Shown piece by piece: positions 1 to 62,544 of a DNA stretch of 64,000 bases. Source of the stretch: Escherichia phage REP5; the sequence record OQ174504.1; one strand, written 5' to 3'. The notes under the pieces are model-generated. The model was not told the DNA's origin. It saw only the letters and a program-made list of their open reading frames with translations, and searched no databases. Made by a program: the position numbers and the translations under genes. Each line of letters opens with the position of its first letter. Within the stretch, counting starts at the first letter, position 1.

Positions 1-1424
1 GCAAGCATATACCTTGAGTCAGCGGTAGATTGTGTATAATATCTAGCATCTAAGTTAGAGAAGTCAGAAGGTTGAACTTGACCAGTGATAGCAAAACTCT
101 TGTTAGCCACAATTACTGATGGTTCAAGGGCAATTTGAGTGCCAGAGTAGCTGTTGTTCCAAGTAACCACGTTGGAATTGTTTCCTCCTACACCAATCCA
201 CCATCTAGAGGTGTTTGCGGTGTCAACACCACGGATATACAAAGGCTGATTTTGTGTTAAATTCTTTACAATCAAACCTTCATTGTTAGCAACAATAGTT
301 TGTGTATTCGTGAAAGTATTAGACACATTAAGTTTAGGGAGATTACTCAAAGTTCCTGCTGGGATATATCTAGAATCGATATTAGTCCAATCAGACGGTT
401 GAACTTGACCAGTGATTTTTACAGGCTTGTTGAATGCAGCACCAGACGAGTTTAAGACAATAGAAGTGTCACCTTTGTAATCGTAAAATGTGATATTGTC
501 ATTTGCGTCACCTTTACCAATATACCACAGGTTATTATCTTCGATGTCTTTTGCTAGGATGAACAAAGATTCATTAACAGCTTTATTTTTTAGCACGATA
601 GCAGCAGCATTAGATTTCACACTGATATAGTTACTAAATGTGTTTGCACCACTAAAAGTGTTATTACCAGTTAACTGTGCAAATCTCTGATTAGCTACTG
701 TCTGAGTAAAGTATCTAGCATCTAAGTTAGAGAAGTCAGAAGGTTGAACCTGACCCATGACTCTTAGTGTCTTGTTAAATGACGCTGTTGCGTCAAGGGT
801 TAACATTGAGCCAGTGGTATGATTGTACAGATAAACATTAGTGTTGTTTGCATTTCCCTGTCCAACAGACCACGTTTGCTGGTTATTAGCATCTCTACCC
901 TGAATATATGAAGCTCCTGTGTTAGTTGCTTTCTTAAGAGTTAACTGCTCACCATCAACGACAATTGCTTGCCTAATGTTGAAGTTATTTGTTACAGTCA
1001 ACCTTGCATATCTTGCATCATTCTCTTCATTAGTTCTCAGCCCAAGTTCATTAGGGCTTGGCTTATTCAGAGTATGATAAACAGTTGCCGACCTTGAAGC
1101 ATCTGCAATAGTTAGTCTAAGGCCGTTTGCGTTGATTTTAAAAGTCTTTAAAACATCCCCAATAGTAATCTCAGAAGAGCCTGTTGGGTCAAAGACTGCC
1201 TTACCACCATAAAGTAACTTAACAATCCCTAAGTCACCAGCCATAGTGCTACCAGCAATCTGAACAAATCTTTCAAGTTTAAAAGATGCTAAGAAGTCTT
1301 GATAGGTCATTCGACGGTCTTCATCGCCAAGCATTTCAGGTCTCTTTTTAACCCTGACATGAAGAAGGTCATCTGAACGGATTGTATCGATTGAGTTTAA
1401 TTCACTCAACTTGTAATCTGCCAT
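1..1424 (-). CDS. tail fiber/tailspike-like protein, N-terminal part (start near 1424; continues past window start)
   Basis: Minus-strand ATG at ~1424 with upstream AGGAAA RBS-like motif; open to window edge; internal ~45-bp DNA repeats (42-91 vs 711-760); position beside tail fiber gene. Confidence 0.45.
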   Translation of the reverse strand, partial: MADYKLSELNSIDTIRSDDLLHVRVKKRPEMLGDEDRRMTYQDFLASFKLERFVQIAGSTMAGDLGIVKLLYGGKAVFDPTGSSEITIGDVLKTFKINANGLRLTIADASRSATVYHTLNKPSPNELGLRTNEENDARYARLTVTNNFNIRQAIVVDGEQLTLKKATNTGASYIQGRDANNQQTWSVGQGNANNTNVYLYNHTTGSMLTLDATASFNKTLRVMGQVQPSDFSNLDARYFTQTVANQRFAQLTGNNTFSGANTFSNYISVKSNAAAIVLKNKAVNESLFILAKDIEDNNLWYIGKGDANDNITFYDYKGDTSIVLNSSGAAFNKPVKITGQVQPSDWTNIDSRYIPAGTLSNLPKLNVSNTFTNTQTIVANNEGLIVKNLTQNQPLYIRGVDTANTSRWWIGVGGNNSNVVTWNNSYSGTQIALEPSVIVANKSFAITGQVQPSDFSNLDARYYTQSTADSRYML

Positions 1425-1470
1425 TATAAATTTTCCTCTTAAAAGGGGCTATCAAGCCCCTGTAAAGAAA

Positions 1471-2643
1471 TTAAGCTGTTCTCTGCCATACATACAGGAC
1501 GAAGGATGGCTGTTCAATATTAACTGCCTGACCTCCACCAACACTATTCGTATTACCACTATGTGTATGCTCAGAAGAAGAGACTGTCACAGTACCACTG
1601 TGTGTATGTGAACCAATACCGACTGTGTGGCTGTGAGCACCAATACCGACTGTGTGGCTGTGGTCACCGGATGCACCAGATGTAACACTAAAGCTATGTG
1701 AGTGTGCACCGTCACTAGATGTTCTTGATGTCCTTCTTGCACCGCCACCATCAGAGTCAGCTACAGCATTACCAGTACCATCATTCTCTCTAGGATACAC
1801 ATCATGGTTGTGAGTACCATTTGTGCTTGTGTTACCTGATACATTGTGTGTATGGTTGCCAGTTGTGTTAGTAGCTTTTGTTCCATAGTCAAAAGAGTTG
1901 GTAGTCTTAGTTCCATAGTCAAAAGCTGAGATTGACACAGTTGCATTATGAGTGTGGCCACCACCACTAAGTGATACAGAGTGGGAGTGTTGAGGCATAT
2001 TATTAACTGACAGAGTGACAGTTGAAGCACCAAATACAGAACCTGCTGGTCTTGCATCAGAGGCATAACCAACCAATGCCCTACCTTTTGAAACCAACTC
2101 CCAAGTACCTCCACAAATTAAATATGTAGAAGGATTTGCAGAGTTCATAGAAAGATGGATAGTACCTACTGGATAAGAAGCCTGAACAGCCTTGTACAAG
2201 TTATTTACTGCTCTTGCTGTAGCATACTTATCTGCATCTTCGTTATACAGGTTAGATGTTGTCCAGTTCTGAACATTACTCAAACCAACCTGTGCCTTAG
2301 TTGTATTGTGCGGATTACTCTTATCATTAATATGCTGTTGAACAAGGCTATTAACCTCTTCGGAAGACATAATCTGTAGATTTGCTCTTGCCTCAGCTAC
2401 ATTAACAATATCTGATAAGTTATTTGCAGCAACTAACTGAAGAGCGTTAATAACATTATCTAAACCAATTTGTGTTTTAGTAACACCATGAGGGTTATTT
2501 CTCAGGCTTGAGTGTGGAGCAAGTAATTGCTCAAGAGTGCATCTCTTATCCTCAATACCCTGCTTAAGATGGAAGATATCACTAAGGTCAATTGGTAAGG
2601 CTGCTTGAGGCAAGGCACTAATTTGAATTTCACCTACCGCCAT
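1471..2643 (-). CDS. tail fiber protein with collar-like domain and His-rich HxH repeats
   Basis: 390-aa ORF; duplicated NPHGxTKxQxGLxNV motif; collar-like segment IHLSMNSANPSTYLICGGTWELVSKGRALVG; C-terminal HSHS/HTHN/HSHT repeats. Confidence 0.65.
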   Translation of the reverse strand: MAVGEIQISALPQAALPIDLSDIFHLKQGIEDKRCTLEQLLAPHSSLRNNPHGVTKTQIGLDNVINALQLVAANNLSDIVNVAEARANLQIMSSEEVNSLVQQHINDKSNPHNTTKAQVGLSNVQNWTTSNLYNEDADKYATARAVNNLYKAVQASYPVGTIHLSMNSANPSTYLICGGTWELVSKGRALVGYASDARPAGSVFGASTVTLSVNNMPQHSHSVSLSGGGHTHNATVSISAFDYGTKTTNSFDYGTKATNTTGNHTHNVSGNTSTNGTHNHDVYPRENDGTGNAVADSDGGGARRTSRTSSDGAHSHSFSVTSGASGDHSHTVGIGAHSHTVGIGSHTHSGTVTVSSSEHTHSGNTNSVGGGQAVNIEQPSFVLYVWQRTA

Positions 2644-2645
2644 TA

Positions 2646-10688
<8,043 letters not shown>

Positions 10689-22386: not shown

Positions 22387-22462
22387 TAAAATAACTTGGA
22401 GAATCCGAAGGGACTCGAACCCTTATAAACCTGTTTTGCAGACAGGCACATATCCATTTCTG
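22387..22462 (-). tRNA. tRNA-Cys (GCA)
   Basis: Manual fold: acceptor GAATCCG/CGGATTC, anticodon stem CCTGT/ACAGG, loop CTGCAAA, T-loop TTCGAGT, encoded CCA. Confidence 0.6.
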
Positions 22463-22466
22463 TCAC

Positions 22467-22559
22467 GGATTCAAATTGGAGGAAGATACCAGACTTGAAC
22501 TGGTACACCGATTTCTCAGCTACTGGCAGTTTAGCAAACTGCTCCCTTACCTTTTAGGG
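22467..22559 (-). tRNA. tRNA-Ser (GCU), type II
   Basis: Acceptor GGAAGAT/ATCTTCC, anticodon stem GCAGT/ACTGC, loop TTGCTAA, long variable arm, CCA. Confidence 0.6.
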
Positions 22560-22570
22560 TTAATCTTCCA

Positions 22571-23305
22571 TTATTTCTGTAATGCGCTCTTCATTTCTGG
22601 TGTTGCAATAGTGTCAATTACACCAGTTTTACAAGCATCATCAAACCAGTCTGGTAAGATACCTGCTAAGAACCCATTGATATTCGTTTTAAGGTACTCT
22701 GCAATAAGGGCAGCTTCTTCTTCAATCATCTGCACAACTTCATCTGCATAAGCTGTAATCTTTGAGATACCTTCATTAATCTTGCTAACAGCTTGGTTAG
22801 CTAAATCAGAAACAGTATCAAGACCTTTATCAATAGCATCTTGTAAGTCACTTAATACATCATTAACACCGTCTAGTGCACTGTTCATCATGTCAATAGC
22901 TTTTTGACCATGTTCTGTAGCAACACCCATAATACCACTGAATGGTGTACAACCAACTTGTTCTCCTGCTGCACCCATAACATTGGAATACCCCTTTGCT
23001 ACCTGCATACGTGATGAAAACTCATCAATAGACTTTTGACCGTAGTCTGTTAGGGTCTTAGTAGTTGCTGTAGTGCTTGTAAGGCTTGTTGTAAAGCTGT
23101 TTAGAAGGACTGTTGTAAGTCCAGCAGCAACAAGTTTCTCCTTCATTGTAGGGTCTGTTACAGAACTAATAGAGCTTACAAGTGATGTAGAAGCAGCTAC
23201 GGTTCCACCGAGGACTGCTGCACCAGTAATAAGTGGGTTAGAAAACCCTTTACCGGTTTTTAAGAGATTAAAAATCTCCTTACCTTGTTCTGTCATCTCT
23301 TTCAT
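22571..23305 (-). CDS. hypothetical protein embedded in tRNA cluster
   Basis: ORF 22571..23368 trimmed to an internal Met to avoid overlap with tRNA-Phe. Confidence 0.35.
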   Translation of the reverse strand: MKEMTEQGKEIFNLLKTGKGFSNPLITGAAVLGGTVAASTSLVSSISSVTDPTMKEKLVAAGLTTVLLNSFTTSLTSTTATTKTLTDYGQKSIDEFSSRMQVAKGYSNVMGAAGEQVGCTPFSGIMGVATEHGQKAIDMMNSALDGVNDVLSDLQDAIDKGLDTVSDLANQAVSKINEGISKITAYADEVVQMIEEEAALIAEYLKTNINGFLAGILPDWFDDACKTGVIDTIATPEMKSALQK

Positions 23306-23323
23306 TAAGCACCTTTGAAATTG

Positions 23324-23398
23324 GTAGTCCAGTGGGATTTGAACCCTCTTCTCATGTTTTTCAGACACGCGCTTTAACCATATAAGCTACTTGGACTA
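23324..23398 (-). tRNA. tRNA-Phe (GAA)
   Basis: Acceptor TAGTCCA/TGGACTA, anticodon stem CGTGT/ACATG, loop CTGAAAA, T-loop TTCAAAT. Confidence 0.55.
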
Positions 23399-23403
23399 TA
23401 AAT

Positions 23404-23479
23404 TGGGGTGACCTACGGGATTTGAACCCGTATAGACCATGTTCACAGCATGGGTCATTACCATTTATGATAAGGCCAC
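23404..23479 (-). tRNA. tRNA-His (GUG)
   Basis: D-stem TCAT/ATGA, anticodon stem CCATG/CATGG, loop CTGTGAA, CCA. Confidence 0.6.
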
Positions 23480-23510
23480 ATTTAAGGATTCTCGTAAGAA
23501 CCCTTAGAAG

Positions 23511-23586
23511 TGGCAGCGGCATAAGGATTTGAACCTTAATAGGACAGCTTCAGAGACTGTTGCATTGCCAGTTATGCTATACCGCT
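23511..23586 (-). tRNA. tRNA-Gln (CUG)
   Basis: D-stem GCAT/ATGC, anticodon stem ACAGT/GCTGT, loop CTCTGAA, T-arm TAAGG-TTCAAAT-CCTTA. Confidence 0.55.
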
Positions 23587-23591
23587 AAATT

Positions 23592-23670
23592 TGGTACTCC
23601 ATATCGGATTCGAACCGATACATAACACAGATTTTAAGTCTGGCCTCTCTGCCAATTGGAGTAATGGAGC
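23592..23670 (-). tRNA. tRNA with anticodon UAA (Leu-type) but short variable arm
   Basis: Anticodon helix CAGA/TCTG with loop CTTAAAA; Leu-like D-arm CCAATTGGCAGAG; A73; T-arm ATCGG-TTCGAAT-CCGAT; no long extra arm. Confidence 0.45.
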
Positions 23671-23672
23671 AT

Positions 23673-23748
23673 TGGCGGGGGATGTTGGAATTGAACCAAC
23701 TTCTTCGATTTCAAAGACCGAGGTTTTAACCTTGTAAACTAATCCCCT
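23673..23748 (-). tRNA. tRNA-Gln (UUG)
   Basis: Anticodon stem TCGGT/ATCGA, loop CTTTGAA, T-arm GTTGG-TTCAATT-CCAAC. Confidence 0.5.
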
Positions 23749-23756
23749 TTAAATCT

Positions 23757-24314
23757 TTACTTTCTCAGTGGATGAATAAAGAATGCCAACATAACTCTTT
23801 CCCTTGAGAATGCTCTTTCTTCTGGGACAACGCTTTTTAGTTTCCATCCAATATAAATTCTCCAGTAAAACTGTTTACCAAAGACTTTAATTGATGGGAT
23901 AAAAGCGAATAATCCCCAAGCATTACTGTTCCACATTAGGAGATAACCAGTCTGATTATCTTCAGGGTCAGAACTTACGTTGATATTACCTTTCCACTTA
24001 GTAACATCTTTTACATCTCTTCCTAATACATGGTAAGAGAAGTTATAAGCTTTGTTTCTCCAGAGCCACCCAACTCTCTGCATATAGACACCAAGCTTAC
24101 CAATCTTTCTAATTTTAGCCCATCGTTTAACGTGACCTTCATCACCATCAATTGGGTTGTCATATGTCTCCATCCATCTGAAGCCGAAAGGTAAGTGTCC
24201 TTTCTTCTCACTGTAAAATGGAACTACGAAAGGTGCTAAGATAACTGCTAAGATTGCTGCAAATGGCTCTAACAAAGCTAATAAAATCCATGAAGCATAC
24301 TTCAAATATCTCAT
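23757..24314 (-). CDS. membrane protein embedded in tRNA cluster
   Basis: 185-aa ORF with hydrophobic N-terminus ILLALLEPFAAILAVILAPFVVPF. Confidence 0.4.
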   Translation of the reverse strand: MRYLKYASWILLALLEPFAAILAVILAPFVVPFYSEKKGHLPFGFRWMETYDNPIDGDEGHVKRWAKIRKIGKLGVYMQRVGWLWRNKAYNFSYHVLGRDVKDVTKWKGNINVSSDPEDNQTGYLLMWNSNAWGLFAFIPSIKVFGKQFYWRIYIGWKLKSVVPEERAFSRERVMLAFFIHPLRK

Positions 24315-24333
24315 CTAAATAGCCTCTTTAAAT

Positions 24334-24409
24334 TGGCGCAGGATAAGGGATTCGAACCCCTATTAACAGCTTCGTAGACTGTTGCTCTATCCATTTGAAC
24401 TAATCCTGC
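24334..24409 (-). tRNA. tRNA-Arg (ACG)
   Basis: Acceptor GCAGGAT/ATCCTGC, anticodon stem ACAGT/GCTGT, loop CTACGAA. Confidence 0.6.
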
Positions 24410-24414
24410 AAAAT

Positions 24415-24492
24415 TGGTGTTCCAAGACGGATTCGAACCGTCACTAGTACAAGGTTTGAGCTTGCATCCTCTGCCAATTGGGATACTGGAAC
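24415..24492 (-). tRNA. tRNA with anticodon CAA (Leu-type) but short variable arm
   Basis: Anticodon stem GCAAG/CTTGT, loop CTCAAAC; D-arm CCAATTGGCAGAGG; A73. Confidence 0.45.
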
Positions 24493-24493
24493 A

Positions 24494-24568
24494 TGGTACT
24501 CACTAAAGGACTTGAACCTTTTTCTTCATCTTGTAAGGGTGGTGTTTTACCATATAAACTAAGCGAGT
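24494..24568 (-). tRNA. tRNA-Val (UAC)-like, weak anticodon stem
   Basis: Loop CTTACAA; anticodon stem CCACC/GATGA has two C-A mismatches; acceptor and T-arm intact. Confidence 0.4.
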
Positions 24569-24571
24569 ATG

Positions 24572-24658
24572 AAAGAGGTCTGAAGTTGTGCCGCTAACTC
24601 AACTCCGTGGAATTTGTTACGGTCTTCAGTTGACACCAGCGGTCTTTCACTTGACCTC
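24572..24658 (-). ncRNA. tRNA-like structured element / possible pseudo-tRNA
   Basis: 7-bp terminal helix AGAGGTC/GACCTCT enclosing ~73 nt with internal hairpins but no canonical T-loop. Confidence 0.2.
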
Positions 24659-24663
24659 TGAAT

Positions 24664-24740
24664 TGGTGCTGCTCACAGGACTCGAACCCGCATTTCCATC
24701 CTTACAAGGGATGTGTAATAGCCAATTATACGAAAGCAGC
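24664..24740 (-). tRNA. tRNA-Thr (UGU)
   Basis: Anticodon stem CATCC/GGATG, loop CTTGTAA. Confidence 0.6.
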
Positions 24741-24747
24741 ATTAATT

Positions 24748-24822
24748 TGGAGCATCCAGAGGGAATCGAACCCTCAACCTCAGTTTGGAAGACTGTAATT
24801 TTCCCGTTTAAACTATGGATGC
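24748..24822 (-). tRNA. tRNA-Gly (UCC)
   Basis: Acceptor GCATCCA/TGGATGC, loop CTTCCAA. Confidence 0.6.
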
Positions 24823-24828
24823 ACTAAT

Positions 24829-24904
24829 TGGTGGAGAAGCAGGGAATTGAACCCTGTACTTAAGTTTGCAAAACTTATGTTTTAACCATGTAAACTACAT
24901 CCCC
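24829..24904 (-). tRNA. tRNA-Ala (UGC)
   Basis: Anticodon stem TAAGT/ACTTA, loop TTTGCAA; G3-U70 wobble pair present. Confidence 0.6.
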
Positions 24905-24910
24905 AATGTC

Positions 24911-24986
24911 TGGTACAGGTGGAGGGAATTGAACCCATCGTCTTACTGATTAAGAGTCAGCCGCATAACCATTTTGCTACACCTGC
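24911..24986 (-). tRNA. tRNA-Lys (CUU)
   Basis: Anticodon stem GCTGA/TCAGT, loop CTCTTAA. Confidence 0.5.
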
Positions 24987-24993
24987 ATTAATT

Positions 24994-25071
24994 TGGTAGG
25001 AGACAAGGGATTCGAACCCTCAAACATCTCGTTCTAAGCGAGATAGGTTTACCAATTACCGTCAATCTCCC
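24994..25071 (-). tRNA. tRNA with anticodon UAG (Leu-type) but short variable arm
   Basis: Anticodon stem TCTCG/CGAGA, loop CTTAGAA; D-arm GTAATTGGTAAAC; A73; 5-nt variable region. Confidence 0.45.
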
Positions 25072-25316
25072 ATTAAGTCTTTTTAGAGAACTTCTAAGAA
25101 CCTAAGCAACAAGGTTCCACAACAAGCTGTAATAACCTTAGAAGCCCTCTAAAAAGACCTAAAAAGGTCTTTGCATAGTCTTGTTTAATCCGGTGACTAG
25201 AACCTTTGGAGAGCTTGATATTATCTCTTCTCCGTGACACCTACTAGGTGTTTTATCAATGTGTACAACAATACACGCGGTATACCAAAGCAACATCCGA
25301 ATGAAGCTTGGCTTTA

Positions 25317-25406
25317 AATCTTATTAGGCGGTAAGTAAAGGAGTCGAACCCTCACCGTATCTCTACAGTGGCAACTGTTTTCAAGACAGTTTGGCTACCA
25401 TTAGCC
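25317..25406 (-). tRNA. tRNA-Ser (UGA), type II
   Basis: Anticodon stem ACTGT/ACAGT, loop CTTGAAA, ~20-nt variable arm, T-loop TTCGACT. Confidence 0.55.
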
Positions 25407-25429
25407 GCTACCTACCCCTAATAAGACTT

Positions 25430-25512
25430 TGGCATGGGACGGAGGAGTTGAACCCCTTTGAAACGGTGTTGGAAGCCGTTGCTCATGCCTTAGAGTCTTA
25501 ACATCGTCCCAT
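25430..25512 (-). tRNA. atypical tRNA-like gene (Gly-UCC-like loop with 2-nt expansion)
   Basis: Acceptor ATGGGAC/GTCCCAT with CCA; T-arm AGGGG-TTCAACT-CCTCC; anticodon helix ACGG/CCGT enclosing 9-nt loop CTTCCAACA. Confidence 0.3.
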
Positions 25513-25644
25513 ACTATAATTCGAAGCTTACCGTATTATCTCAACACTGTAAAGCCCCTTCTCAGATTATTTACATGTTCTGGAAAACATGAGATACAGA
25601 CCACCTCCCTACAGGAAGACCCGCTTAGGTCGTCTAAGTAATCT

Positions 25645-25721
25645 GCTAACTATTTGGCACACCCTACAGGATTCGAACCTGTAACTCAATGATTAGAAGT
25701 CATTTGCTCTGTCCAGTTGAA
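25645..25721 (-). tRNA. tRNA-Arg (UCU)
   Basis: Anticodon stem AATGA/TCATT, loop CTTCTAA. Confidence 0.6.
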
Positions 25722-25934
25722 CTAAGGGTGCATTAATCTTTAAAGACTCTCTTAGAAAGCCCTTAAAGATGCCCACCTTATTAATCATACCGTGGGCTAG
25801 TACGCCAAATTCTTTGATGAGGGATTGGAAGACCTCACTGGTGTTTAGCCTATCAAGCTACTGCCAGAAAAACATTGTCGTTTGCATTTATTTTAAATTT
25901 GCAAAATAGACGCTACGCAACGAAAACTAAGGTT

Positions 25935-25963
25935 ACTATAAAGTGGTCACATCTCAGTGTCAA
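25935..25963 (-). promoter_or_regulatory. sigma70-like promoter inside tRNA cluster
   Basis: Minus-strand TTGACA, 17-nt spacer, TATAGT; points leftward into a ~200-nt leader then tRNA-Arg(UCU). Confidence 0.4.
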
Positions 25964-25978
25964 CAACTTTATTGAAAT

Positions 25979-26054
25979 TGGTACTGTGAGAAGGATTCGA
26001 ACCTTCTGCCTTTCGGTTATCAGCCGAATGCACATCCATATGTGCTTTCACAGC
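25979..26054 (-). tRNA. tRNA-Ile (GAU)
   Basis: D-stem GCAC/GTGC, anticodon stem TTCGG/CCGAA, loop CTGATAA. Confidence 0.6.
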
Positions 26055-26056
26055 TT

Positions 26057-26133
26057 TGGAGGTTCAGATGGGAATCGAACCCACATTCATAGGGCTTATG
26101 AGACCCTTGCATTACCTTATCTGCGACTGAACC
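26057..26133 (-). tRNA. tRNA-Met (CAU)
   Basis: Acceptor GGTTCAG/CTGAACC, anticodon stem AGGGT/GCCCT, loop CTCATAA. Confidence 0.55.
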
Positions 26134-26137
26134 ATTT

Positions 26138-26213
26138 TGGTAGAAGTGGAGGGATTCGAACCCATCGCCTGTCAGATTAAAAGTCTGCCGCATCACCATT
26201 CTGCTACACTTCC
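26138..26213 (-). tRNA. tRNA-Lys (UUU)
   Basis: Anticodon helix GCAG/CTGA-type with loop CTTTTAA; T-loop TTCGAAT; CCA. Confidence 0.55.
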
Positions 26214-26217
26214 ATTA

Positions 26218-26361
26218 AATTATCTTTGTAGATAAGCTACCCAGACTTGCTTAAGGTCTGTAGCGATGTGCCTTGTTGGGTTTAAATCTAGAATTTACCC
26301 TTTCACCCTTTGTGGTCGCATACTCACAGGTAAGCTTAATAACTTATCTACAAAGATAATT
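26218..26361. repeat. 19-bp perfect inverted repeat (AATTATCTTTGTAGATAAG) flanking ~106 bp
   Basis: Left arm 26218-26236 is the exact reverse complement of right arm 26343-26361. Confidence 0.6.
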
Positions 26362-26400
26362 ACCAGACCGTTGTTTATCATCTTAAGTGCTACCATTACA

Positions 26401-26440
26401 CCAACTCGACATCTGCCGAGTGAAGGAATCGAACCTTCAC
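26401..26440 (-). pseudogene. tRNA remnant (3' half only)
   Basis: Intact T-arm GAAGG-TTCGATT-CCTTC and acceptor-like 3' strand, but no complementary 5' acceptor found upstream. Confidence 0.25.
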
Positions 26441-26474
26441 CTTTTCTTTACCGGAGAAATAGATTGTTTAAGTT

Positions 26475-26497
26475 TTGCTGTAAACGGTCTTCTGTAA
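26475..26497. repeat. tRNA-cluster repeat element, copy 1
   Basis: TTGCTGTAAACGGTCTTCTGTAAA. Confidence 0.55.
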
Positions 26498-26563
26498 ATT
26501 TGTTGAGCCAGACCAAGTTTTAAATTTTTCAAAATTAAATTGGCTTGAAATTTTCATACGTTC

Positions 26564-26586
26564 TTGCTGTATTTGGTCTTCTGCTC
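26564..26586. repeat. tRNA-cluster repeat element, copy 2 (diverged)
   Basis: TTGCTGTATTTGGTCTTCTGCTC. Confidence 0.45.
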
Positions 26587-26643
26587 CTTTAAAGAATACT
26601 CGTAAGAACTCTTTAAGGGAGGGGCTAAATAGCCCTCTCAAAA

Positions 26644-26729
26644 TTGGCGGCTACGATGAGACTTGAACTCACATCATCTCCCAATATCCTTTTACGTGGG
26701 AGTATTTTAACCAAATTAAACTACATAAC
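26644..26729 (-). tRNA. type II tRNA, anticodon unresolved (possibly degenerate)
   Basis: 86 nt; acceptor GGTTATG/CGTAGCC with CCA; T-arm GTGAG-TTCAAGT-CTCAT; Leu-like D-arm; anticodon region CACGTAAAA with only a 3-bp stem. Confidence 0.35.
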
Positions 26730-26734
26730 CTTTA

Positions 26735-26822
26735 TTGGTGTGCCGTGTAGGAGTCGAACCTACCGAGTCTCAATGACAAGGGATTTACAGTCCCCACCGC
26801 TACCATCTACGGGATAACGACA
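26735..26822 (-). tRNA. tRNA-Tyr (GUA), type II
   Basis: Anticodon stem GGGGA/TCCCT, loop CTGTAAA, long variable arm, T-arm GTAGG-TTCGACT-CCTAC, CCA. Confidence 0.55.
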
Positions 26823-26830
26823 CATTTAAA

Positions 26831-26906
26831 TTTGCGGTTAGTCAGGGATTCGAACCCTGTGCCATTCGCTTAACAGGCGACCGCACATACCTTATGTGCT
26901 TCCTAA
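26831..26906 (-). tRNA. tRNA-Asn (GUU)
   Basis: D-stem GCAC/GTGC, anticodon stem GTCGC/GCGAA (one mismatch), loop CTGTTAA. Confidence 0.55.
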
Positions 26907-26966
26907 CCATATTTAGTATTACCAGACCGTATCTTTCAATTTTTTCCGCTAAAAATTTGATAAGTG

Positions 26967-26990
26967 TTGCTGTAAACGGTCTTCTGTAAA
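26967..26990. repeat. tRNA-cluster repeat element, copy 3
   Basis: TTGCTGTAAACGGTCTTCTGTAAA, directly abutting the 3' end of the tRNA at 26992. Confidence 0.55.
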
Positions 26991-26991
26991 A

Positions 26992-27068
26992 TTGGAGGCG
27001 GGTGCAGGAGTCGAACCTGCCGATACCATGCTAATGAGACATGTGAGACGCCCTTTCTCTATACCCGC
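26992..27068 (-). tRNA. second CAU-anticodon tRNA (Met, fMet or Ile2)
   Basis: D-stem GAGA/TCTC, anticodon stem CATGT/GCATG, loop CTCATTA; 1-72 mismatch. Confidence 0.5.
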
Positions 27069-27133
27069 AATTCTTAATGACCAGACCAAATCTCTTCTTT
27101 GTCCGATTTACCTTCAGATGAATAAGATTAAGT

Positions 27134-27157
27134 TTGCTGTAATTGGTCTTCTGTCAA
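27134..27157. repeat. tRNA-cluster repeat element, copy 4
   Basis: TTGCTGTAATTGGTCTTCTGTCAA, abutting the 3' end of tRNA-Glu. Confidence 0.5.
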
Positions 27158-27160
27158 AAC

Positions 27161-27238
27161 TGGCGTTCCAGAAGGGATTTGAACCCTCAGATATCCACTT
27201 TGAAAGAGTGGTGACTATACCATTTTGTCTACTGGAAC
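27161..27238 (-). tRNA. tRNA-Glu (UUC)
   Basis: Acceptor GTTCCAG/CTGGAAC, anticodon stem CCACT/AGTGG, loop CTTTCAA. Confidence 0.6.
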
Positions 27239-27245
27239 ATTAATT

Positions 27246-27325
27246 TGGTCTCCGTTGAAGGATTTGAACCCTCGACCCCTTGCTCCCAAAGCAAGTGCTG
27301 CTAAACCAAACTGAGCTAAACGGAG
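27246..27325 (-). tRNA. tRNA-Pro (UGG)
   Basis: Anticodon stem CTTGC/GCAAG, loop TTTGGGA, T-arm GAGGG-TTCAAAT-CCTTC, CCA. Confidence 0.55.
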
Positions 27326-58299: not shown

Positions 58300-58785
58300 T
58301 TACTCTGCTCGCCACTGACAATCACCTTGCCACCCATACTCTTTTCTCCAGAGGTTTTGGTTATCAGAACCACGATATGGTTTAACTGTTGGTTTAGATG
58401 AATCATACTTACCATCAATCACCACGTCAACATATTTCATTACATCTAGGTGAATTTTTTCGTGTAACTGAAAACCTGTCCAGAGCCATATAGTCTTCTC
58501 TGGGTAAACAGTTTTAACACGTTTGCATATGTCTGTAACCTCTTGAATATTTCTATCATCCAGAGGTTCTCCACCAAGTATTGACAAACCACTGACAGCA
58601 TTATCACCCATTAGCTGGATGATTCCGTAGAGGTTTGCATAAGTGAACACTTTACCAGCATTAAACTTCCAAGACTCCCTGTTAAAGCAACCTTCACAGT
58701 GATGTTTACAGCCAGCTACGAAGAGGCTTACACGAACCCCTTCACCATTAGCTGTGTCAAATGGTCTAATCTCCATGTAATTCAT
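58300..58785 (-). CDS. nrdG: anaerobic ribonucleotide reductase activating protein
   Basis: 161-aa ORF; radical-SAM cluster motif CKHHCEGC. Confidence 0.8.
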   Translation of the reverse strand: MNYMEIRPFDTANGEGVRVSLFVAGCKHHCEGCFNRESWKFNAGKVFTYANLYGIIQLMGDNAVSGLSILGGEPLDDRNIQEVTDICKRVKTVYPEKTIWLWTGFQLHEKIHLDVMKYVDVVIDGKYDSSKPTVKPYRGSDNQNLWRKEYGWQGDCQWRAE

Positions 58786-60083: not shown

Positions 60084-61031
60084 TTACATAGAAACCCTAT
60101 CCTTAATTTCTGCCATCTTAGCGTCATTCATTCGAGACTGACCTTTAATTTTTGTGAATGACAAGTACCCACACACCCTGTTAATCACAGAGATATCATG
60201 TGAATGGCAAACCTCACATTCTTCAACATCAGCCTTTGGTCTGTGACCACAATGTTCACAGATTGCTAAGTCAAAGTTAAGTCCTTGATAAAAACCTTTC
60301 AACATCCCTCTTGTAATACAACTTTTAAGTGCTGATAAGTTTTCTGGATTAGCTACCCTTACATACTGGATTCTTCCGCCTCTACAGATATGGAAGAAGG
60401 GTTCTTCTAAGTCCTGCTTCTCAAATGGTGTAATATCTGCTGCAACATTCATATGGAAACTGTTTGTAAAGTATTCCTTATCAGAAACACCTTTGATAAC
60501 ACCAAACATATCTCTGAACTGTTTTAGCTGAGTCCCACAAAGTGATTCTGCTGGAGTGCCATAGACTGCATATAAGAAACCGTCTTCATTTTTAAACTCT
60601 TCAGTTTTCATGTTGATGTATTCCAGAACATCGTATGCAAAACTACAGCTTCCAACTTCATGAAGTCGTTTACCTTCAGCAAGAACAGATAGCTCATCAA
60701 GCGCAGTAACCCCAAAAGAAGCTGTGAAGGACTTCACAATATCCCAACCAACCCTGTCAGTAGGCTTCTTAGTTCCTTTATACAGACCACCTTGTGTAAA
60801 TGCAAGAGGGTTAGAACTTGCTGGCATATTAGCAATCATTTCGTAACGTTTCTTGTGGAAGTTGCGAATCATCTCTAGGTACTTATCAAGCTCTTTCCAG
60901 AAATCTAAACCATTCTCTTTAGAGTACTGGTAAATCATTGGCAAGTTCAAAGATACAGCACCAATGTTGGCACGACCTACATAAAACTCTTCACCATATT
61001 CGTTATGGTATGGTGATAAAAATGCTCTACA
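60084..61031 (-). CDS. nrdD: anaerobic ribonucleoside-triphosphate reductase, exon 2
   Basis: Begins CRAFL...GRANIGAVSLNLP; C-terminal zinc ribbon CEHC..CEVC and glycyl-radical motif RVCGYLS. Confidence 0.75.
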   Translation of the reverse strand, partial: CRAFLSPYHNEYGEEFYVGRANIGAVSLNLPMIYQYSKENGLDFWKELDKYLEMIRNFHKKRYEMIANMPASSNPLAFTQGGLYKGTKKPTDRVGWDIVKSFTASFGVTALDELSVLAEGKRLHEVGSCSFAYDVLEYINMKTEEFKNEDGFLYAVYGTPAESLCGTQLKQFRDMFGVIKGVSDKEYFTNSFHMNVAADITPFEKQDLEEPFFHICRGGRIQYVRVANPENLSALKSCITRGMLKGFYQGLNFDLAICEHCGHRPKADVEECEVCHSHDISVINRVCGYLSFTKIKGQSRMNDAKMAEIKDRVSM

Positions 61032-61347
61032 CTTGTTGTTCAGGTAAGTTCGCTAAGCTTACCCCGCTTTATTCAAGCTGCTTACTGTCGCCAGTAAGTC
61101 CAGACTATATCTTCTACTTATTTCTAAGTAGCGTACCATTTCGAGTCGCTTGACCCTACACCGCTACATTCATCACGGTTAGTCGTTCGGCATTTAGATG
61201 TATTCAAACTCATATTCGAAGTTATTTGGCATGTAAGACCCCTATGTTGTATAGTTTCTTACATCGTACATCATTTAGCACAGGATTGTCTACATCTGTA
61301 GAGTTTCCCTGTTTAGGCACGTTTTAGATGAGCTATAGAGCTTGTTA
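61032..61347 (-). other. group I intron (ORF-less) in nrdD
   Basis: 316 nt between exons; P/Q/R/S-like elements TGCCTAAACAGGGAAA, AATCCTGTGC, GAACGACTAACC, AAGATATAGTC; P9-like hairpin CTTACTG-GCGA-CAGTAAG; 5' exon ends in U, intron ends in G. Confidence 0.65.
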
Positions 61348-62544
61348 ACCCATCGGCGAAATAACCTTGCCAGAACGCTCAAAAGCTTCTGCTACAGCAC
61401 CATGACCAGATACACTTAAGAAGTCTGGATACATTGCTTTAGAACAACACTCAATAGCTTTACTGTACAGGTGGCCTTGACAGATATTCTCATTGTGTCT
61501 CTTCTGGTCATAAATATAAACCAGTTTAGGGAATACAACAGGCTTCTTGCTCTTACCTTGTCCATTCATACGAACATCTAGGAGAGTACTTGCAATCATG
61601 TATTGCAGTCGGTTGTCTTCATTAGACATGTCTGAGTCAAGTAACCCAAATGTCAAAGTTGTGAATGCAAAATCCCCACGACTACAAGGTACAGTATTTA
61701 GTTTCATTTCAAGTGACTGGAAACCTTGAGTTAGCTCAATCTGTAGCTGCTCCATGACATAATTGTGGTGATGTTCTTTAGGAATACCATAAGATGCTGC
61801 TTTCTCAGCATGATAGCGTAGAGACTTCTTAGCATACGGTACAAGTACCTTATCAATCTCTGCTAAAGTAAAGCCACCAAATTGCTGTGCAGTTGCTGAA
61901 AGTACTACGTCACCAATAACCTGTAAGGCTGATAGTACAGATTTAGGTTCACAGTATTCAATGCCAGACATTTCAAAGCCACCTTTCAGTACTTTACCAA
62001 TGTCAAACAGGCAACAGTTGATACCACCAAAAATTAGGTCTCTTAAATCATGGATATAGATAAACCCTTTTTCAATGGCTTCCAATTCCTCTGGTGTTAA
62101 ATGGTACTGTTTAAAGATTTCTTTAGTCAGGTAACCACGGATAATTGAACCTTTCGTAGAAATTAAACTGCTGTCAAAGTTAGCATTTTCACGGTCACCT
62201 AAGAAGAGTGTATCTTTAGTCTTCTGGTAGAGTTCATCCCAGTTTTGAGCAACCTCTTTACGGTAATTTCTATATGTTGAGTAAGACTCATAAATCTCGT
62301 GATTGACTTCTGCCAAAGCACCCTCAACAATACTGTGAATATCATTTACTGAAACGAGTAAATTATTCTGCTTAGTAGATTTTACCAGAATCCTCATAAA
62401 TGCTGACTCAAGAGCTTGAGTAACATCTGGTGGAAGCTCTTTATAACCAACTCTGTTAGCTGACTTTGTGACTGCTGCTAAAACTTTTTTGATATCAGGT
62501 TCTTCAAGTGAGCCATTCTTTTTAATAATCTGTACTTTGTTCAT
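61348..62544 (-). CDS. nrdD: anaerobic ribonucleoside-triphosphate reductase, exon 1 (ATP-cone N-terminus)
   Basis: N-terminal ATP-cone-like VQIIKKNGSLEEPDIKKV; exon ends ...VISPMG before intron. Confidence 0.75.

Follow-up and report, generated by a model that had tools for sequence, protein, structure and literature searches.

A compact group I intron in nrdD of a Felixounavirus, very probably a non-autonomous derivative of an HNH-bearing mobile intron

Does the anaerobic ribonucleotide reductase gene nrdD of Escherichia phage REP5 encode two polypeptides, as records of closely related phages have it, or a single enzyme whose message is spliced? We approached this question in a stretch of 64 kb (64 of ~87 kb; hereafter the window), whose region 60000–62600 matches the Felix O1-like Escherichia phage REP6 (genus Felixounavirus) at 100% identity and numerous Felixounaviruses of Salmonella and Escherichia at 95–97%. 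The REP6 record lists two CDS for the gene—'NrdD-like anaerobic ribonucleotide reductase large subunit' and 'anaerobic ribonucleoside reductase large subunit'—without an intron feature, and labels the gene at the coordinates matching nrdG 'anaerobic ribonucleotide reductase small subunit'. The initial annotation, made from the letters of the window, had proposed that nrdD is split by a small group I intron. We consider it very probable that a group I intron indeed interrupts nrdD and that this intron, whose splicing we infer, is non-autonomous and descends from a 742-nt mobile form bearing an HNH gene. The features of the locus, in which nrdD, the intron, and nrdG all lie on the minus strand of the window, are collected in Table 1.

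Table 1 Features of the nrdD locus, with positions as numbered in the window
Feature	Position	Strand	Description
nrdD exon 1	61348..62544	minus	399 codons; ATP-cone and N-terminal part of NRDD; last codons ...ISPMG (GGT)
P1 and internal guide	61327..61354	minus	Exon 1 GAUGGGU (61354..61348) with intron GCUCAUC (61333..61327, intron positions 15–21)
Group I intron	61032..61347	minus	316 nt; starts with an in-frame UAA; terminal G (omega-G) at 61032
P10 guide GCUCUAUA	61341..61334	minus	In the P1 loop, immediately 5′ of GCUCAUC
P3 5′ strand CGUGCC, P4 ACAGGG/UCCUGU, P5 hairpin UCUAC-AGAU-GUAGA	61280..61321	minus	5′ half of the core
P6 with peripheral P6a/P6b/P6c	61190..61279	minus	Site of the HNH gene in the 742-nt form; from the minimum free energy (MFE) fold
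HNH gene stub MPNNFEYEFEYI-stop	61194..61232	minus	12 codons: start ATG CCA AA joined in frame to the final 10 codons
P7 5′ strand GACUA, P7.1 ACCGU/GCGGU, P7.2 GGGUC-AAGC-GACUC, P3 3′ strand GGUACG	61132..61184	minus	
P8 CUACUUA-GAAA-UAAGUAG, J8/7 AAGAUA, P7 3′ strand UAGUC	61103..61131	minus	
P9 CUUACUG-GCGA-CAGUAAG (GNRA loop), P9.1 GCUU/AAGC, P9.2 GGUAAG/CUUACC	61043..61098	minus	3′ domain
nrdD exon 2	60084..61031	minus	315 codons and stop; starts at Cys codon TGT (CRAFLSPY...); Zn-ribbon cysteines and RVCGYLS
P10 3′ strand UGUAGAGC	61024..61031	minus	First 8 nt of exon 2
nrdG (activating enzyme)	58300..58785	minus	Intact, downstream of nrdD; from the ORF list

That the gene is broken in two, as had been described, is borne out by the ORF list and by Pfam: an upstream ORF (62544..61345, minus strand) with the ATP-cone runs to ...GKVISPMG and then TAA, and a downstream ORF (60950..60084, minus strand) holds the zinc-ribbon stretch CEHCGH...CEVCH and the motif RVCGYLS. 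From the GGT codon (T = 61348) to the TGT codon (T = 61031) the gap measures exactly the 316 nt that had been given for it (61347..61032). It carries stop codons in all three frames, the first intron codon among them, and the ORF list shows nothing of 60 aa or longer within it. When the exons are joined at the proposed sites, the result is a 2145-nt ORF of 714 aa, in frame across SPMG/CRAFL (the slash marking the junction), just as the initial annotation had predicted.

The product of this joined frame has the look of a full-length class III enzyme. Pfam places an ATP-cone at residues 5–97, NRDD in one piece at 119–712 (E = 6.6e-115), and Gly_radical, so that the NRDD domain, the finger-loop cysteine, the Zn-ribbon cysteines, and the glycyl-radical motif are complete once the exons are joined. 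Alignment to NrdD homologs, which had been named as a check, ran gap-free over the junction (...vsPMGCRSFLs... in the structures), both with 9d3x (E = 2e-77) and with T4 NrdD 1h78 (E = 8e-75). Cys400 of the spliced protein, the first residue past the junction, stands opposite T4 NrdD Cys290 (numbering of the 1h78 chain), the finger-loop cysteine that passes the radical to substrate in class III ribonucleotide reductases (RNRs). The insertion point thus separates the Gly codon from the Cys codon in the conserved ...SPMG/CRxFL... finger loop, equivalent to G289/C290 of T4 NrdD.

All the computational tests that we ran point to a group I intron with precisely the splice sites first proposed. The Rfam model RF00028 (Intron_gpI), with a gathering score of 50 bits, matched the minus strand at 53.6 bits (E = 8.5e-11 over 64 kb; 8e-13 on 601 nt), and was the sole non-tRNA match when the whole window was scanned at gathering thresholds; a permissive scan of 60900–61500 (E ≤ 1) returned no family besides Intron_gpI. 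The score lies just 3.6 bits over the threshold, the model being penalized by the long P6 periphery, and its coordinates (61462..61081) are not the intron boundaries, since the model misplaces P1/P2 in exon 1. Among relatives, the allele of RPN213 scored 60.4 bits and the T4 nrdD intron 105.3 bits. The ORF-bearing forms and the introns of phages phiS and F97 (see below) were not detected by RF00028 at the gathering score because their inserted ORFs break the model, which is therefore no evidence against homology.

The exact splice sites are fixed by two pairings. P1, with its invariant U·G at the 5′ splice site, is paired in six of six sequences of the comparative set described below, and in P10 the intron guide GCUCUAUA pairs with UGUAGAGC of exon 2 at all eight positions. 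In Vibrio phage F97, P10 is likewise paired at 8/8 positions with another exon sequence, UGCCGAUC, and another, matching guide, GAUUGGCA. The intron ends in ...ACAAG, and a terminal G is likewise found in its homologs from the other three lineages. Intron-less alleles tell the same: nrdD of the Felixounaviruses adrianh and KhF2, of Mooglevirus SFPB, and of Suspvirus EcSzw-2 is contiguous exactly at GGT/TGT, reading ...CCGATGGGT/TGTAGAGC... unbroken (...ATGGGT/TGTAGAGC...). Splicing after the U of GGT and after the G of ...AACAAG, as the initial annotation had it, is hence where P1, P10, and the intron-less alleles all point.

All the core helices—P3, P4, P5, P6, P7, and P8—are present and paired, together with the P3/P7 pseudoknot. 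The four short strings that had been likened to the P, Q, R, and S elements turned out to be real helix strands: P is the 5′ and Q the 3′ strand of P4 (ACAGGG at intron positions 36–41, UCCUGU at 63–68), and R and S are the 5′ and 3′ strands of P7 (GACUA at 164–168, UAGUC at 241–245, the latter pseudoknotted with 61184..61180). The GNRA-capped, P9-like hairpin is P9 itself (intron positions 250–267). An unconstrained MFE fold of −80.2 kcal/mol (z = −3.3; none of 100 shuffles folded as well) recovered P3, P4, P5, P6/P6a/P6b, P7.2, P8, P9, and P9.2.

The comparison for covariation drew six sequences from four lineages: Felixounavirus (three alleles), Krischvirus phiS, Vibrio phage F97 (its second nrdD intron), and T4 nrdD, with linkers standing in for ORFs and P6 peripheries. 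Plain MAFFT, whether on ORF-less versus ORF-bearing forms or on trimmed cores, left several helices out of register; the final alignment was segmented by hand on invariant joiners and N-padded. In this alignment, which leans towards the proposed structure and comprises just four independent lineages, 99.7% of cells were paired over 66 pairs in 11 helices (P1, P3, P4, P5, P6, the P7 pseudoknot, P7.1, P7.2, P8, P9, and P9.1), and 21 pairs were altered on both sides. Such double changes occurred in P3 (3), P4 (2), P5 (2), P7.1 (2), P8 (4), P9 (3), and P9.1 (3). None of 500 column shuffles matched this result, and sliding the 3′ partners by 1–3 columns lowered pairing to 33–40%, with 0–1 double-changed pairs. 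P7 (paired in 6/6) and P6 are invariant and so gain neither support nor contradiction from covariation. P9.2, re-gapped by MAFFT, was checked by script and is fully paired in six of six sequences with several compensations. With P7.1/P7.2 between P7 and P3′ and a P9.1/P9.2 extension at the 3′ end, features of subgroup IA are present; these and the close likeness to the T4 nrdD intron place the intron with the T4-type IA introns, and on the accepted classification it would be IA2-like.

Could the two ORFs nonetheless be what they appear to be? The GenBank records of REP6 and many relatives annotate two separate nrdD CDS, and phage RNR genes that are split yet functional are known, such as that for NrdA of Aeromonas phage Aeh1, split by mobE (PMC3653736). 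On that model, both nrdD ORFs would be translated separately and the fragments would assemble without RNA splicing. The frame of exon 2 speaks against it: two stops precede the 3′ splice site, at −10 and −8 codons, and from there no start codon occurs down to a TTG at +27 codons, itself without a Shine-Dalgarno sequence. As the start would come only at +27, exon 2 translated alone would miss the catalytic Cys and 26 conserved residues. Moreover, a complete group I ribozyme, with covarying helices and with P1 and P10 fitted to both exon ends, fills the spacer, and we hold a truly split gene to be very improbable. Because inteins and free-standing endonuclease genes are likewise found in RNR genes of phages (PMC3653736), we considered an element of another kind, whether intein, group II intron, or intergenic cassette inserted here. 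We found no support for one: the stops in 3/3 frames, including the first intron codon, exclude an intein, Intron_gpI is the only Rfam match in the region even at E ≤ 1, and the gap lacks an ORF of 60 aa or more, leaving such an element with next to no credence.

A different concern is that the sequence is a relic, an intron that ceased to splice after losing its endonuclease, and that nrdD is a pseudogene in this phage. In T4, nrdD is dispensable in aerobic culture. The record of phage D1-2 treats its nrdD as a non-coding 'similar to' misc_feature, and ST11, sequenced and presumably viable, has nrdD broken at the same site. Substitution rates argue otherwise: in the comparison of this phage with pSJ21, which also bears the intron, dN/dS is ~0.04–0.05 in both exons (0.046 in exon 1, 0.041 in exon 2) at a dS of 0.13–0.16. 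The pairing of 99.7% of cells, with every core helix intact, the confinement of the deletion described below to the P6 periphery, the mere 2/316 differences from the endonuclease-bearing pSJ21 copy, and the intact nrdG downstream likewise stand against decay, and we judge a dead intron quite unlikely.

Where, then, does so small an intron come from? The nrdD intron is contained in ~93 phage records, many of them with a 742-nt form whose P6 periphery carries a 154-aa 'HNH homing endonuclease' (Pfam HNH_3, E = 2.5e-10). Against the 742-nt intron of pSJ21, the 316-nt intron of the window matches end to end with a single in-frame gap of 426 nt (142 codons) and two mismatches. The breakpoint lies at intron positions 121–123 (window 61225–61227), with 2 nt of microhomology, and the ribozyme core, outside the deletion, is nearly unchanged. 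This alignment shows the ORF-less intron to be a deletion derivative of the 742-nt, HNH-bearing mobile intron. The initial annotation had stated that no homing-endonuclease ORF is present; this holds for an intact gene, as tblastn with the 154-aa HNH protein found just a 10-aa remnant in the 64-kb window, and needs amending for the 12-codon stub that was left behind. Nor did the window (64 of ~87 kb) contain a free-standing or paralogous HNH gene able to mobilize the intron in trans.

Both mismatches with pSJ21 (G108 and C111) fall in peripheral P6b, in the ribosome-binding region of the ORF. G108 destroys the Shine-Dalgarno sequence AGGAG (GGGG in REP6), and C111 completes the hairpin AUGUAAGA/UCUUACAU; in the ORF-less allele of phage D1-2, AGGAG is still present. 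A 44-nt probe spanning the junction, neither arm long enough to match the ORF-bearing form, found the same deletion in at least 22 records, including EC6 (deposited 2012) and SPJ41, so that the junction marks an established allele lineage. In RPN213 the intron measures 292 nt by a different deletion, which removed the start region and kept ...GVKEHNNFEHEFEYI-stop; the endonuclease gene has thus been lost at least twice.

How the intron would act follows the standard group I pathway, from which we infer splicing, its guanosine dependence, and its efficiency; computation supports the fold itself, both splice sites, the joining of the exons in frame, and the origin by deletion. The pre-mRNA would fold into P1–P10, and an external guanosine held at P7 would attack the phosphate that follows the U in the U·G pair of P1 (GGU/UAA). 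Exon 1, its 3′-OH now free, would stay bound through P1 and be lined up with exon 2 by the 8-bp P10; this hydroxyl would then attack after the terminal G (...ACAAG/UGU), yielding an mRNA for a single 714-aa NrdD. On unspliced RNA, ribosomes would be stopped by the UAA that forms the first intron codon.

Having lost the HNH gene of its 742-nt ancestor with the 426 nt removed in frame, save for the 12-codon stub, the ORF-less intron could presumably no longer home on its own. By occupying, and so destroying, the target site of the endonuclease, it may nevertheless protect nrdD from the cognate enzyme, and a co-infecting relative that bears the endonuclease could allow it to be copied into intron-less phages. 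Immunity and mobilization in trans are accordingly roles that the ORF-less intron might play.

Group I introns near the catalytic residues of phage RNR genes have been textbook knowledge since T4. Their placement beside catalytic residues in phage nrd genes is classic (PMC2988022; PMC3653736), and a 'split nrdD' with a homing endonuclease has already been noted for Felixounavirus (PMC4837284). Intron boundaries were annotated in the BASEL collection, whose Felixounavirus is Bas63: the record of this phage, which has the ORF-containing form, gives nrdD as a two-piece join, and 2887 − 742 = 2145 nt fits the splice sites found here. The paper on SPJ41, a phage with the REP6-type ORF-less allele, mentions 'two introns' among ncRNAs, their positions not stated. 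The original Felix O1 paper reports Felix O1 to be without introns, and many Felixounavirus nrdD alleles are intron-less. Our literature search found no description of the structure of the intron RNA, of how the ORF-less form arose by deletion, or of an insertion site common to phage families. New here are the derivation of the ORF-less intron from the 742-nt HNH form by a 426-nt deletion, the recurrence of that junction in other genomes, the different deletion in RPN213, and the codon position shared with a Krischvirus and a Vibrio phage but not with T4; the intron as such is essentially unpublished, visible in databases, and of a well-known kind, and it changes no concept.

Its use is practical. 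The nrdD of REP6 and of numerous further Felixounavirus records, annotated as two proteins (and pseudogene-like in D1-2), should be one spliced 714-aa enzyme. Moreover, a single site offers a natural series—empty, with intron and HNH gene, with two independent gene-less derivatives, and with one apparently botched excision—that could be used to study the life cycle of homing endonucleases and the exchange of introns between phage families.

Nearest among known elements are the 742-nt HNH introns of pSJ21, Bas63/JohannRWettstein, UAB_Phi87, and JH2, which share the site and the ribozyme (2–12 differences over the shared 316 nt). Relative to them, the window copy is without 426 nt (142 endonuclease codons), retaining the start and the last 10 codons. 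Within Felixounavirus, intron-less, ORF-less, and ORF-bearing alleles thus occur at one site. The intron is less diverged than the exons in each comparison with another intron-bearing phage: 0.6% versus 3.4% for pSJ21, 1.3% versus 5.9% for D1-2, and 3.8% versus ~6% for Bas63. Over the opening ~63 nt of exon 2, differences from intron-less alleles amount to 11–13 per 100 nt, as against 3–6 between intron-bearing alleles, a cluster suggestive of co-conversion of the flanks. Both patterns are as expected from homing with co-conversion, to which structural constraint and ordinary recombination could contribute. In ST11, the break of nrdD at the intron site may reflect imprecise loss of the intron or else an assembly error.

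Further afield, Krischvirus phiS (an RB49/JSE-like relative of T4) and the second intron of Vibrio phage F97 share the identical ...MG/CR... boundary, the P1 guide GCUCAUC/G, and a homologous HNH ORF at the same place in P6 (phiS ...NLEWGTNSENTKEGYENGCYKF... versus Felix ...NLEWGTHSENVKEGYENGCYKF...). Identity to the window intron is 79% for phiS over its 3′ half and 73% for F97 over positions 137–286. These phages belong to other families and have the full ORF, which runs through P6 3′ and J6/7 into P7 (...EMPND-stop), whereas the HNH ORF of the Felix form stops 5 codons earlier. The shared site and HNH ORF in phiS, a relative of JSE, fit the 53% identity reported between the UAB_Phi87 endonuclease and one in phage JSE (PMC4837284).

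The T4 nrdD (sunY) intron, labelled 'group 1A intron' in the T4 record, resembles ours in host gene and in its P7.1/P7.2 and P9.1/P9.2 architecture; P6, P7, the J8/7 stretch, and the P7.1 loop GAUGAAUGUA are identical, and differences in other helices are compensated. It sits, however, at another site, after ...FQAYE and ~110 codons upstream of G289/C290, and its ORF, a GIY-YIG gene (I-TevII), occupies the P9.1 loop; the ancestral Felix ORF is an HNH gene in the P6 periphery. With a site ~110 codons away and an ORF of another family in another loop, we rejected orthology with the T4 nrdD intron, which, by site and ORF, is a paralogous insertion and a distinct element despite its near-identical core.

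Taken across these groups, a tentative scenario, possible though short of probable, is that a unit of intron and HNH gene, set at the codon boundary before the radical-loop Cys of NrdD, has moved among three unrelated groups of phages, namely Ounavirinae, Krischvirus of the Straboviridae, and phages of Vibrio. In Felixounavirus it may cycle through invasion, endonuclease loss, and intron loss, with ORF-less copies persisting through immunity of nrdD and spread in trans. Two independent endonuclease deletions, the apparent imprecise loss in ST11, and an intron less diverged than the flanking exons (put at 3–5×) point this way. ORF-less or degenerate group I introns are known from other phages, namely the T4 nrdB intron with its truncated I-TevIII and the gene 43 intron of Aeromonas phage 25 (PMC2988022; PMC2993671). 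These lie in another gene, at another site, and with another endonuclease than here; like the nrdD intron of the window, they have kept the ribozyme after loss or truncation of the endonuclease, and they are possibly mobilized in trans (PMC2988022; PMC2993671).

The intron in the window still carries a stub of the HNH endonuclease gene, whose AUG is placed within the 3′ strand of hairpin P6b. The upstream AGGAG is changed to GGGG in REP6 and retained in D1-2, which is also ORF-less. A second shortened form, found in Salmonella phage RPN213, scores 60.4 bits against RF00028; because its deletion differs from that of the window, with the P6b hairpin and the ATG removed and 16 C-terminal endonuclease codons left, the endonuclease gene was lost independently in this allele. 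In Salmonella phage ST11, only the first three bases of the intron remain, forming a stop codon, and exon 2 is also devoid of its first 9 nt (Cys-Arg-Ala). This junction reflects either an imprecise intron excision that killed nrdD or an assembly artefact.

Features of the nrdD introns and flanks (positions with an L-number count within that comparison sequence)
Feature	Sequence	Position	Strand	Remark
HNH gene stub	window	61194-61232	minus	12-codon mini-ORF MPNNFEYEFEYI-stop; deleted gene's start fused to its end
Exon 2 flank, first ~63 nt	window	60969-61031		compared between intron-bearing and intron-less alleles
292-nt variant of the window's intron	RPN213 (L010)	about 440-743		
nrdD junction	ST11 (L011)	about 1690-1712		reads ...CCGATGGGT TAA TTTTTATCACC...
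Interrupted nrdD	Vibrio phage F97 (L008)	224-2700		at least three coding pieces, two intervening sequences
HNH ORF overlapping ribozyme core	F97 (L008)	2450-2560		
HNH ORF overlapping ribozyme core	Krischvirus phiS (L007+L004)			joined across record ends

A distinct exon 2 flank is common to the alleles with the intron (GCATTTTTA...TACCATAACGAA, encoding SPYHNE); those without the intron read GCCTTCTTA...TATCTTAACGAG (SPYLNE), and in RPN213 and D1-2 the flank is a mosaic of both types. The pattern looks like a co-conversion tract left by homing, or like divergence of the endonuclease target site.

Because of the intron, nrdD is annotated inconsistently across records: REP6 (OQ174505) and many others list two independent 'NrdD' CDS, D1-2 (MN481367) has the gene as a non-coding 'similar to' misc_feature, and Bas63 gives it, correctly, as a two-piece join. 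The junction of the ORF-less Felixounavirus intron also occurs, at 97.6% identity, in 'Campylobacter phage' records, namely A132, A126 (hits H169 and H170) and A13b, the last classified as Vequintavirus; these UNVERIFIED entries are probably mislabelled or contaminated. The T-even-type Mosigvirus TH58 (L009, 2501-2611; record without annotation) matches the 5′ half of the window's intron in two pieces (query positions 15-192, 87.5% identity). Elsewhere in the window, Rfam places 24 tRNA genes in a dense minus-strand array (22400-27325), which is typical for Felix O1-like phages.

Each of the two sequences interrupting F97 nrdD contains an HNH gene. The second occupies the same MG|C site as the intron in the window and has a clearly homologous core, and group I-like core sequences (P4, P7) are present in the first, too. 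In the introns of both phiS and F97, the HNH ORF reads on across the P6 3′ strand, then J6/7, and terminates within the P7 5′ strand (...EMPND, the stop being part of GACUAA/GACUAG), so that protein-coding sequence and the ribozyme's catalytic core overlap. The Felixounavirus HNH ORF stops five codons earlier.
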